Virus record (IMG/VR): IMGVR_UViG_2617270984_000006
Strand: one strand, 5' to 3'
From: a virus
Taxonomy: Duplodnaviria > Heunggongvirae > Uroviricota > Caudoviricetes
DNA length: 14,339 bases
Shown: piece by piece, positions 4,862-14,339 of the stretch
Layout of the letters: every line of letters starts with the position of its first letter
Numbering within the stretch: position 1 is the first letter of the stretch
Made by a program: the position numbers and the translations under genes
The notes under the pieces: model-generated
What the model was told of the DNA's origin: nothing
The model's database searches: none
Seen by the model: only the letters and a program-made list of their open reading frames with translations

Positions 4862-4882
4862 CCCCCAGCTACGTGCTGGGGG
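4862..4882. other. Perfect GC-rich stem-loop (8-bp stem, 5-nt loop) at the boundary of an AT-rich insertion
   Basis: cccccagc (4862-4869) / tacgt / gctggggg (4875-4882), exact reverse complements. No T-tract follows on the + strand; a weak T-rich stretch follows on the - strand. Lies between the DUF2815 stop and the first AT-rich gene. Confidence 0.5.
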
Positions 4883-4902
4883 ATCTCATGAGGGAAAGTA
4901 TA

Positions 4903-5544
4903 ATGTCACAGCCCGTATTAACTAATCACCTTAAAACTCAAATCATCAATAACGCACTTGAGAAAGCGGGTATCCCCAAACGTAAATCAGCACTACGAGC
5001 TGCTCGTGTTGAATGGGCCGAACGTGTTCGGCTTGCAGCTATCGGGGGCGTAGAGAAAGAAGCTGAAATATTAAAAAATATAAAAAAGATTGAATCCATG
5101 GTCACAAAAATCCCTGATTCATTAAAAACCAATAGTTCTTTAATTCGAAAAGATTGCTGCATATATCTCAATCTGGCTGGAGCCAGAGCAAACATTTATT
5201 TCAATGGCAACTACAGAGGTTATGAATCAGGAGCCCCCGAGCATATTAATAAAATAGCACCTGCAGAATTTACTCTACTTGGCGAAGATCCTCTGGTAAC
5301 GGAGTTTTATAGCTTTGATGCTCTCTACACACAAATTAAAAGTGATGAAACCGAAATCATACAGAACGTCAGCGCGGCTCTAAATAAAGTTCGGACAGTA
5401 AAACGATTACTGGATGTATGGCCCGAAGCTAAAGAACTGCTTCCAACAGACGCACCGCCAGTCCCTTTAGCACCAGCGGTACATCGAGAGACATTAAATG
5501 AAATGATAGGCCTTCCTACCAATACAGTGTCTGATACTCAATAA
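4903..5544 (+). CDS. Hypothetical protein (AT-rich accessory gene X); no family recognised
   Basis: Listed ORF starts at GTG 4873 inside the stem-loop; ATG 4903 (MSQPVLTNH..) has an AGGGAAAG Shine-Dalgarno-like element 7 nt upstream, and ATG 4888 is an alternative. About 213 aa from 4903. AT-rich compared with flanking replication genes (by eye). Confidence 0.55.
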   Translation: MSQPVLTNHLKTQIINNALEKAGIPKRKSALRAARVEWAERVRLAAIGGVEKEAEILKNIKKIESMVTKIPDSLKTNSSLIRKDCCIYLNLAGARANIYFNGNYRGYESGAPEHINKIAPAEFTLLGEDPLVTEFYSFDALYTQIKSDETEIIQNVSAALNKVRTVKRLLDVWPEAKELLPTDAPPVPLAPAVHRETLNEMIGLPTNTVSDTQ

Positions 5545-6288: not shown

Positions 6289-8352
6289 ATGTCCAATATA
6301 CTATGGGGCGACCTGGAAACCTATTGTGACATTCCGATCAACAACGGTACCCATGCGTATGCCGAAGGCGTTGAAGTGATGCTTTTCGCATGGGCTATCA
6401 ACGACGGGCCAGTAAACGTGTGGGATATCACTGCCGGTGGTGGTATTCCACACGGCTTATACGAAGCAATCGCAGACCCTGAAACCCTGCTTTATTTCCA
6501 TAACTCTCACTTCGACCGCACCGTTCTGCGTTATGCAATGCCGCGACTGGCACCGCCAGTCGAACGTTGGCGCGACACGATGGTGCAGGCGCTGGCGCAC
6601 GGTCTCCCGGGGTCTCTGGGGGAACTCTGCGAAGTACTAGGCGTCCCGCAAGACAAAGCGAAGGACAAAGAAGGTAAAGCGCTGATCCAGCTGTTCTGTA
6701 AGCCACGCCCGAAAAACAGCAAACTGCGTCGGGCCACCAGTAAAACCCACCCGGAAGAATGGCGGCGCTTTGTTGCTTACGCCGGACTGGATATCGAGGC
6801 AATGCGCGAAGTCTATAAACGTCTGCCGAAGTGGAATTATCAGGGGACAGAGCTGGCGCTCTGGCATCGTGATCAGCAGATCAACGACCGGGGCGTCTGC
6901 ATGGACATGCAACTCGCGCGCGCTGCGATCGAAGCGGTAGACCAGGAGCAAAAGCGCCTGGCAAAGCGTACACAGGAAATGACTGATGGCGAAGTGCAGG
7001 CAGCCACACAACGGGACGCGTTGATTAAGCACATCGTTGAATCCTACGGTGTGGAGCTACCAGACATGCAACGCAGTACCCTAGAACGTCGTATAGCCGA
7101 CCCCGATTTACCATCTGCCGTGAAAGAACTGCTGGCTATCCGCCTGCAAGCCAGTACTACCAGCACCAGTAAATACAAGGCACTAATGAAAGGCGTAAGC
7201 CACGACGGGCGCTTACGCGGTACGCTACAGTTCTGCGGGGCGTCGCGTACCGGGCGCTGGGCCGGACGGCTATTCCAGCCCCAGAACCTTCCCCGCCCTT
7301 CACTAAAACAGGAACAAATAGACGAAGGCATCGAAGCACTGAAAGCCGGATGTGCAGACCTGCTGTTTGACAATATCATGGAACTAACCAGTTCAGCGTT
7401 ACGTGGCTGCATTATCGCGCCAACAGGCAAAAAACTGGTGGTAAGTGACTTGTCGAACATTGAAGGCCGTATGCTGTCATGGCTGGCAGGAGAAGAATGG
7501 AAACTGAATGCATTCAGAGAGTACGACGCCGGAACGGGTCCGGACTTATATAAACTGGCGTATGCAAAAGCTTTTGATATTGCACCAGATGATGTTGATA
7601 AACGCATGCGTCAGATCGGTAAAGTCATGGAACTCGGTCTGGGTTATGGTGGTGGTGTGTCGGCCTTCATCACTTTTGCACTGGTTTACGGTCTCGATCT
7701 CGACGAGCTGGCAAACGCTGCACTGCCAAACATTCCCCGCGATGTTATCCGCGAGGCGAAAAGCTGGTACGGCGAATCGGTTAAACGTAAGTCAACCTAC
7801 GGCCTTTCTGAACGGGTATTTATCGCCTGCGACTCACTTAAACGTCTCTGGCGCCGGGCGCATCCCGCGACCTGTGATTTCTGGTACGAACTGGAGCGCA
7901 CCGTCCGCACTGCAATCGCCACACCGCAAAAAACATTGTATTGCGGTTATCTTAAAATCCGCCGCGATGGCGCGTGGCTACGCATACAGCTACCATCCGG
8001 ACGCGCTGTATGCTACCCGTCTCCGGTTATCGAACAAGGGAATATCACCTACATGGGTGTTAACTCTTATTCGCGTAAATGGCAACGACTCAAAACCTAC
8101 GGCGGAAAGCTGGTGGAGAACGTCACCCAGGCGGCCGCCCGCGACGTTCTGGCCGGAAACATGCCGCTTATCGAAGATGCCGGTTACAGCATTGTGCTGA
8201 CGGTACACGACGAGGTGATCACCGAAGCACCTGACACAGAAGATTTCAACGATAAAGCGCTTTCCGCGCTTCTCTCCACTAACCCCGAATGGGCGCCCGA
8301 TATCCCACTGAACGCTGGCGGTTTTGAGGCGTACCGCTACCGTAAGGATTAA
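6289..8352 (+). CDS. Family A DNA polymerase (phage type) with 3'-5' proofreading exonuclease domain
   Basis: 687-aa ORF. Exo motifs DLETY (Exo I), [10 protein letters not shown] (Exo II), YAGLDIEAM (Exo III). Polymerase motif [13 protein letters not shown], motif [17 protein letters not shown], motif C LTVHDEV. No 5'-3' exonuclease domain is evident. Confidence 0.9.
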
Positions 8353-12271: not shown

Positions 12272-12468
12272 GCGAGAAACCCGACGATTTACTCACCCCG
12301 GATGAAGTATGCCAAAAGTTAGGTATTACACAGAAAACGCTATGTGAGTGGAATATTAAGCATCGTCATCGGGCTATCCTGGCACCAATTCGTTTCAGTG
12401 CAAAAGTAGTTCGTTATGAGCGCCGCAATGTAGACGCTTTTATTCAAAAGTGTCGCAGCCGGTATTAA
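12268..12468 (+). CDS. AlpA/excisionase-like helix-turn-helix DNA-binding protein
   Basis: 66-aa ORF; LLTPDEVCQKLGITQKTLCEW...PIRFSAKVVRYERRNVDAFI fits the AlpA/Xis-type HTH pattern. ATGA overlap with the helicase stop. Located next to the integrase, as excisionase/regulator genes usually are. Confidence 0.7.
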   Translation: MSEKPDDLLTPDEVCQKLGITQKTLCEWNIKHRHRAILAPIRFSAKVVRYERRNVDAFIQKCRSRY

Positions 12469-13870
12469 CCTCGCCGTCGTAGCAATGCCACCTGCGCAAG
12501 TATGCTCCGCTCGTGAGCTTCGAAAGCTTCGCGCTTCAACGCAATCTCTTCCTGTAAAATCTCATCAGAAAAGTCGTAATGTTCTGCCATCGGGTCATCT
12601 GACTTGCTGGAGTGATGAAGGCAAAGGAGGCTGATTTCCCTTCGGTCTGAGCGGGAATAGCCTCTTTCCTTCATCAAGGCAATAACATTGCTCTTAAGGA
12701 ATTTACGGCACATAGTATTAAATGCACCGTCTTTCCCTTTAACAGTCCCATCATGTTTTATTCCTTTTACAGCCCCGTCCGGGCTGTATGTTTTCACTAG
12801 CTTATCCAGTGATCGTTTTGAAAATGGCTGCATTGGATCACGTGGCTGCAAAAATACATAATCCCTATTGCACTCAGGAACTGAATCACGCCAGGCTTTC
12901 TGCTCGTCGATAATCCGCCGGATCTCAGGCGTTATCGGCAGGGGGGAAAGCCTTTTTGTTTTTTCATAGCCCCTCGCATGCCGATAACCCCTTCCGGATA
13001 AACAATTTCACCAGCCTCCTCGTGAACGTAGTCCCAGCGCAGGTTATGGACATTAATCGGACGAACGCCAGTGATGATCATGAAGCGAACAGCATTCTTC
13101 TGGTGTACAGAGGCGCAGGCAGCAACATTGAGCCAGAGTCGGGCGATTGATTCAATATCGGTAAAAAGCCGTGTGGGGGTAGGTTTCTGTACGCGGGAGG
13201 AAACATAATCATCTGGCAGACTGGCGGCAACATTGCGGCCGTTGCAAAGAGTAGGTGCGCAGAACTTCCAGAACCGACGGAGCTCGGCAAACAACTCCAG
13301 GGCGTTATTGTTCGAGCGAGTGGCGATCCACTCGTCCAGCACTTCCACCAGCCGATTGTATGTTACGTCGCTGAACACCTCGCGCTCGCCGAACGTTGCT
13401 TTAATCCGGTCTATACGCACCCCGTAGGTTGTGAAACTGTCCGGGCTCAGCTTCTGCCGTGCGACTTTGGCTTTGAGGTCATCCCGGTACATTTCCAGCG
13501 CTGCATGTACGGACTCTGCCCGCAGGCCACCGTCAGCCATACCTAGCGCTTTTTCGCGCGCCAGCTGGATAGCGAGCTCCGGCCACTCGCCGAGCTTTTT
13601 ACCTTTGAGGCCCATCTTTTTTGGAAACTCGGCGTAAAATGTAACCTTACCGGCTTTGCTGAAATCGATACGGAGATAGTTCTCTTTTTCGTATTTGGAA
13701 CGGCGAGCCACACCGGAAGCAGCGAGGATGATTTTGGCGGCAGCAACACAGATTTTCATGTGTGCGCTGGTATAGGGGGGTTTACAGGCGTCCCATTTTT
13801 CAGATGCGGCTAAAACATCGTCATTATTGGGGCTATCCGGATTATGTGTTACAGTGCGCGGCATTCTCAA
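12465..13870 (-). pseudogene. int: Tyrosine-type phage integrase interrupted by a 1-nt frameshift in a homopolymer (or sequencing error)
   Basis: Two ORFs in different frames, 12932..13870 and 12465..12851. The upstream ORF carries box I (ITGVRPINVHNLRWDYV). The downstream frame, read back to 13007, gives EKTKRLSPLPITPEIRRIIDEQ...YVFLQP... and the C-terminal LHHSSKSDDPMAEHYDF (His and catalytic Tyr). The frames can only switch within the T6 run at 12959-12964; one extra T would give a continuous product of roughly 465 aa. Confidence 0.75.

Positions 13871-14339
<469 letters not shown>

Follow-up and report, generated by a model that had tools for sequence, protein, structure and literature searches.

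The DNA analysed here (the window, 14,339 nt) derives from draft contig JNPH01000053 of E. coli 2-177-06_S1_C1 (2_177_06_S1_C1). The element it represents is a 15.6-kb prophage remnant between yfhH and yfhL, with a 17-bp direct repeat at either end. The prophage is integrated within the 5′ end of yfhL, for which it supplies a replacement start (window 14079-14123; L025 5490-5540). A 17-bp att core sits inside yfhL and its direct-repeat partner is found ~1.5 kb to the left of the window start, by the displaced original 5′ end of yfhL. The integrase gene, which is split between two reading frames in the window, is convergent with the gene for a 66-aa helix-turn-helix protein (HTH_17), a candidate excisionase or regulator. 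The coordinates of these features are collected in Table 1.

The element is genuinely decayed. Fuller relatives have 6.6 kb that are deleted here, with a junction at 2375-2378 that shows 4 nt of microhomology; homology to the tail-fibre side ends at 2378 and homology to the replication module begins at 2375. In strain STEC383 the ~6.6 kb missing from the window is present and includes the genes for a wedge protein, a holin, a Q antiterminator and VapE, together with HTH and LexA-like repressor genes and the 5′ part of a 300-aa gene. In the replication module, a putative nucleotide-modification protein of the Nmad5 family and a family A DNA polymerase are encoded side by side (4873-5544 and 6289-8352), accompanied by DUF2800 (PD-(D/E)XK nuclease) and DUF2815 (ssDNA-binding) proteins; this module may be a DNA-modification cassette. 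We also note that the two closest complete genomes carry ISCro1 (IS66 family) between the helicase and HTH genes (L004 15916-18531 and L001 3171-4404), where the window has none.

Table 1. Features of the integrase region and of the sequences compared with it
Feature	Position	Strand	Remarks
Integrase gene, split	12465-13870	-	Homologues begin at ATG 13864
Integrase N-part, 310 aa	12932-13864	-	MPRTV...GAMKKQKGFPPCR*; protein equals KDW19611.1
Integrase C-part	12465 to about 12940	-	LPITPE... to RRRG*; authentic frame
Lesion cluster	12941-12960	+ (letters)	Window GGGGGGAAAGCCTTTTTGTT; intact copies GGCGGAAAGCCTTTTGTG
Inverted repeat, left arm	12927-12940		AGGCGTTATCGGCA, with GGC motifs; borders the garbled spacer
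Inverted repeat, right arm	12979-12992		TGCCGATAACCCCT; 13 of 14 positions match in the window
Second, overlapping inverted repeat	12893-12953		AGGCTTTC at 12893-12900, GAAAGCCT at 12946-12953
Helix-turn-helix protein (HTH_17), 66 aa	12268-12468	+	Convergent with the integrase gene, overlaps its end by 4 nt
att core, 17 bp	14107-14123		AATTGTGATATGTGTGA; inside yfhL
JJME integrase	L005:4592-5989 (JJME01000046)		Patch corresponds to window 12943-12978 (alignment)
Lesions in Logan contigs	Integrase gene positions 905-911 and 1009		+G in L011 and L014; -A in L013 and L018; CAA>TAA in L012; elsewhere -T in L019

The integrase gene

Translation of the open reading frames bears out the preliminary description of a minus-strand integrase divided between two frames. 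The N-terminal frame reads MPRTV...GVIGMRGAMKKQKGFPPCR from the ATG at 13864 to a TAA at 12932-12934; its product comprises the arm-binding and core-binding domains and the start of the catalytic domain, including R268 and K301. The C-terminal frame (...YEKTKRLSPLPITPEIRR...) is -1 relative to the N-terminal one and holds R386, H416/H417 and Y429, with its stop codon at 12465-12467. As the window is written, R268 and K301 are thus in one frame and R386, H416/H417 and Y429 in the other, never in one polypeptide. Taken literally, such a separation of the presumed catalytic residues would abolish the activity of a tyrosine recombinase. The homopolymer runs pointed out earlier are likewise present: T6 at 12959-12964, T5 at 12953-12957 and G6 at 12941-12946.

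The integrase gene is found beside yfhL in 160 of 5426 complete E. coli genomes. All 40 copies among the matches listed span 1404 nt, against 1406 nt in the window; the annotated intact coding sequence is 1398 nt, corresponding to 465 aa. Among 60 carriers sampled across the 160, the gene has exactly 1398 nt in 59, the exception being an IS1 insertion in strain VL40 (H107). A wider set of 92 homologues ranges from Enterobacterales to Alteromonadales and consists mostly of single proteins of ~465 aa. An alignment of 20 homologues shows R268, M300, K301, F306, P309, T311, R386, H416 and H417 as invariant and Y429 as nearly so. More distant homologues have a C-terminal extension of ~70 aa, and partial integrases of Shigella, 228-365 aa long, also fall in the 90% cluster.

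The intact protein scores 30.4 bits against PF00589 (cut-off 27.1), the N-part of the window scores 15.8 bits, below threshold, and the Pfam profile search gave no PF00589 match for the C-part. A PDB sequence-profile search with the integrase gave no match at E<=1. The AlphaFold model (mean pLDDT 81.8) has a three-domain fold that matches full-length lambda integrase (1z1b, 5j0n) with E ~7e-8 over ~410 aligned columns. The gene is assigned as a lambda-Int-type tyrosine recombinase of 465 aa. In the model the lesion hits the beta-hairpin (residues 286-309) that bears K301.

The layout of open reading frames in the window could by itself be read as two natural, separate genes, with a short N-terminal protein ending at the upstream stop and an independent gene downstream. 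We give this reading practically no credence. The preliminary description had allowed for homologues that end at that stop and are followed by a separate gene, but the homologues are, as noted, mostly single proteins. No part of the alignment is more conserved than the junction motif AMKTQKxFRLPxTP, the match of the predicted fold to full-length lambda integrase runs across the junction, and neither of the window fragments attains the Pfam threshold.

The lesion and its distribution

Alignment with intact copies locates the lesion as four changes within 18 nt, with a net gain of 2 nt. On the + strand, G>T at 12960 creates the T6 run, where intact copies read TGTTTT at equal length; the T5 run has one additional T (T4 in intact copies); and the G6 run results from C>G at 12943 plus an added G (GGCGG in intact copies). 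Each of the four changes repeats a neighbouring base. Read on the coding strand, intact ATGAAAACACAAAAGGCTTTCCGCCTG has become ATGAAAAAACAAAAAGGCTTTCCCCCCTG.

The single-base frameshift in the T6 run that was originally proposed is therefore ruled out, since the T6 site is equally long in the intact copies. The segment KTKRLSPLP, which had been taken as the one expected of an integrase, is also not native; at this position intact homologues read AMKTQKAFRLPITPE, which includes the invariant M300, K301, F306, P309 and T311. Extending the run to T7, which had been held to make the gene intact, restores the frame but yields MKKTKRLSPLPITPE, a non-native protein.

The window equals its closest relative across the whole integrase gene save the lesion patch, and downstream of the lesion its integrase is identical to intact homologues. 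Comparison with the closest complete genome over 11,973 aligned nt gave four scattered SNPs and the four-change cluster, with no other indel. The presence of four of the eight differences inside 18 nt is beyond chance (P ~6.5e-7).

The isolate comes from a study of Tanzanian children in which genomes were sequenced on the HiSeq 2000 with 100-bp reads and assembled with MaSuRCA 2.3.2 (PMC6222053). Table S1 of that paper gives the isolate with its accession and seven isolates of clone ST5257 (O8:H12), among them three colonies from the window isolate's stool (PMC6222053). Colony 3 from this stool (JNPM01000046) is identical to the window across 14,289 nt except for the four changes of the lesion, and encodes an intact 465-aa integrase. 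A Logan re-assembly of the reads SRR1186520, in a contig common to 8 samples, has the clone's alleles together with an intact integrase sequence; it is identical to the window over 7.4 kb bar the cluster, the reads being of the same clone, either the isolate or a clone-mate. A contig from a Hadza metagenome also combines the clone's alleles with an intact integrase sequence. A genuine pseudogene would be common to clonal relatives or independent assemblies; in all three of these the gene is intact. The truncated 310-aa protein (KDW19611.1) occurs on one contig only, with NCBI as its only source. A protein look-up in the contig collection found no Logan contig with the 310-aa protein or its 312-aa alternative, and an ORF look-up found the C-terminal ORF on no long Logan contig.

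The preliminary description considered the lesion to fit other signs of decay. In so far as the element is a remnant with a 6.6-kb deletion this holds, and these signs are real for the element, independent of the integrase lesion. They are no argument that the integrase lesion is genuine, since the sister colony combines this deletion junction with an intact integrase.

A second copy from the same project is corrupted at this site. JJME01000046 (2_005_03_S1_C1) belongs to the same clone, ST5257, but is from a different child, and its patch GGCAGGGGGGGGGCTAAAAAAACACAAAAGTCTTCCCCCCTG has eight private substitutions which remain in frame and differ from the patch of the window. Each of the eight matches a base one or two positions before it on the + strand, and for six of them this is the base directly before. 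The protein encoded (EZK42859.1 / WP_032296332.1) occurs on a single contig and has six residues altered in the most conserved motif, including the invariant M300 and F306. The JJME patch is probably an artefact, one that entered RefSeq as a distinct 'intact' protein, WP_032296332.1.

Sequence context of the lesion

The patches of the window and of JJME both fall exactly between the arms of a 14-nt inverted repeat, in a spacer of 38 nt in the window and 36 nt in intact genes. GGC occurs in or beside both arms and is thus upstream of the spacer for both read directions. The second inverted repeat overlaps the first, and the intact stretch at 12893-12953 folds into a long imperfect hairpin (DNA fold -21.9 kcal/mol, z = -3.0). 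Illumina sequence-specific error (SSE) was described by Nakamura et al. (2011, Nucleic Acids Res 39:e90, PMC3141275) as miscalls in reads; inverted repeats act in both read directions, and SSE hampers de novo assembly (PMC3141275).

A genuine private mutation would mean that a clustered event in the hairpin spacer of one colony inactivated the integrase and so fixed the remnant in the chromosome. Since the element is a true deletion remnant, selection on its integrase may be relaxed, and real inactivations do exist, in the form of the IS1 insertion in VL40, a clean nonsense allele (L012) and a clean -A (L013). The spacer also falls within the loop of a potential hairpin, whose single-stranded DNA might be prone to mutation. 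Against this, the event would require four independent-looking changes in 18 nt and none in the other 14,271 nt relative to the same-stool colony, plus a further, dissimilar cluster of eight substitutions at this very place in one more isolate from the project. Every change repeats a neighbouring base, which is a dephasing signature, and the allele is absent from all independent assemblies. We therefore consider a private mutation unlikely. Template switching within a quasi-palindrome, as one route to such a mutation, predicts GCGG>GCAG in the right arm, which is not seen; the 11-bp stem AGGCTTTCTGC/GCGGAAAGCCT would be corrected to GCAG and not to G6, and this candidate was rejected. Mutagenesis of the kind driven by diversity-generating retroelements was rejected as well, the substitutions not being adenine-specific.

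Simple lesions of the same spacer also occur in Logan contigs of unrelated runs, namely contigs with a 122-aa C-terminal ORF (Table 1). The +G, -A and CAA>TAA lesions lie within 7 nt of one another, which could suggest that the 36-nt spacer, which encodes the beta-hairpin of the catalytic Lys, is a genuine mutational hot spot, for example as a single-stranded hairpin loop. If this were so, the integrase would have been inactivated recurrently across lineages, immobilising the yfhL prophage, and the alleles of the window, JJME and the Logan contigs would all be real. We judge the hot spot to be very improbable, because the look-up itself ascertains such lesions, because four of the six contigs with an upstream lesion (L011, L014, L018 and L019) carry indels outside the integrase as well, and because of the 59 in 60 sampled genomes with exactly 1398 nt. 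A look-up of the 122-aa ORF can return only lesions at gene positions ~898-1030 (~135 nt). Ascertainment and noisy data thus explain the Logan spacer lesions in part; L012 (nonsense) and L013 (-A), both clean, may represent true pseudogenes of other lineages. Four further contigs from different runs (L015, L016, L017 and L020) all start at integrase gene position 1025-1028, which suggests a common breakpoint such as an IS junction.

A further possibility is that the A-rich stretch (A6 C A5 on the coding strand) serves as a -1 slippery site or as a slipped-strand switch, giving low-level or on/off integrase. The relation of the two frames has the appropriate sign, the A6 and A5 runs are located just ahead of the stop in the window, and the simple indels of unrelated contigs occur at the same A4/GG position. 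Those contigs are, however, subject to the same two reservations, namely the indels elsewhere in four of the six and a look-up that required a lesion in the 135-nt interval. The slippery-looking runs are found in this one assembly only, the E. coli copies reading A4CACA4, and across homologues ranging from E. coli to Pseudoalteromonas the gene is one ORF of ~465 aa. A -1 slip would make MKKTKRLSPLP, which is without the invariant F306, and runs of 4-6 nt are short for phase variation. Recoding or phase variation is in our view exceedingly improbable.

Discussion

Judged from the assembled sequences, the frameshift is very probably a base-calling or assembly artefact rather than the mark of a dead gene. 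We favour an artefact because the lesion is private to one draft assembly, is absent from the sister colony and from SRR1186520, and has the signature of SSE. As a biological feature the frameshift is most likely not real, and in the isolate's real genome the integrase is most likely intact. The preliminary description had left the choice between a homopolymer sequencing error and a genuine inactivating mutation; it is the error that is favoured, although not by the one-base mechanism at T6 that had been envisaged.

A plausible course of events can be outlined. On the Illumina instruments of the time, inverted repeats that carry GGC lead to lagging dephasing, which is sequence-specific and affects reads of both directions. 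With dephasing, the called base tends to repeat its predecessor, quality and usable coverage collapse, and de novo assembly is disturbed. Degraded reads at the spacer would then have led the assembler, or its error corrector, to turn miscalls into two inserted bases. The consensus of this assembly has become homopolymer-like (A4CAC to A6C, A4 to A5 and CCGCC to C6), and its gain of 2 nt breaks the frame. Some observations do not sit easily with an artefact. SSE errors are substitutions, so that the two inserted bases require a further contribution from error correction or consensus building; simple lesions (-A, +G and C>T) in the same spacer of contigs from unrelated runs could mean a mutational hot spot; and a dead integrase would be unsurprising in a decayed remnant.

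When a draft genome shows a frameshifted integrase, it is tempting to conclude that the prophage is locked in place. In the present case the break is most likely an error of a single assembly. A second assembly is corrupted at this site in a different way, and pseudogenes or odd variants called from HiSeq-era drafts should therefore be viewed with caution where the coding region contains GGC-bearing inverted repeats. On the sequence evidence, the isolate has probably retained a working integrase, together with both 17-bp att cores, on the 15.6-kb remnant, which may therefore still be excisable.

Comparison with known systems

The intact protein resembles lambda-Int-type recombinases in its predicted three-domain fold and in the placement of its gene at a prophage end, beside an att core and a small HTH gene; R268, K301 (in the beta-hairpin), R386, H416/H417 and Y429, conserved in the 20 homologues aligned, are candidates for the catalytic residues. 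It differs in that the family is very divergent, with a weak Pfam match (30 bits), no PDB match by sequence profile and 9-16% identity to solved integrases, and in that the first His of the canonical H-x-x-R appears to be replaced (FNTMCRKF, with N382, T383, C385 and R386 invariant). The protein is also longer, at 465 aa against 356 aa for lambda Int, and the integration site is the 5′ end of a protein gene, yfhL, and not a tRNA gene.

Programmed -1 frameshifting at A-rich slippery sites is known from dnaX and from IS3-family transposases. The window shares with these systems two overlapping frames in a -1 relation and A6/A5 runs before the upstream stop. In contrast to them, homologues keep neither the slippery motif nor the two-frame layout (the E. 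coli copies compared at DNA level have A4CACA4GG and no A6 run), and the product would be without invariant residues.

Dead integrases of cryptic prophages offer a likeness in that an ORF is disrupted in a prophage that has lost structural, lysis and regulatory genes, and the same family includes the IS1 insertion (H107) and the nonsense allele (L012). Genuine pseudogenes, however, are inherited by clone-mates and recur in independent assemblies, and the window lesion does neither. It also consists of four clustered, neighbour-repeating changes and not of one simple event.

The lesion can also be compared with SSE. The present case differs in being known from errors in the final consensus alone, including two inserted bases that would need input from the assembler, and in that only 2 of ~8 draft assemblies with the clone's helicase allele are affected. 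The two agree in other respects. Whichever the read direction, an inverted repeat of >8 bp and GGC within ~10 nt directly precede the affected positions. In JJME, 8 of 8 wrong bases equal one of the two bases before them, as is characteristic of SSE (PMC3141275), and in the window 4 of 4 changes repeat a neighbouring base. The data are from Illumina sequencing by synthesis on an instrument of that period (HiSeq 2000), the effect reaches the de novo assembly, and it is seen again at one site in independent libraries.
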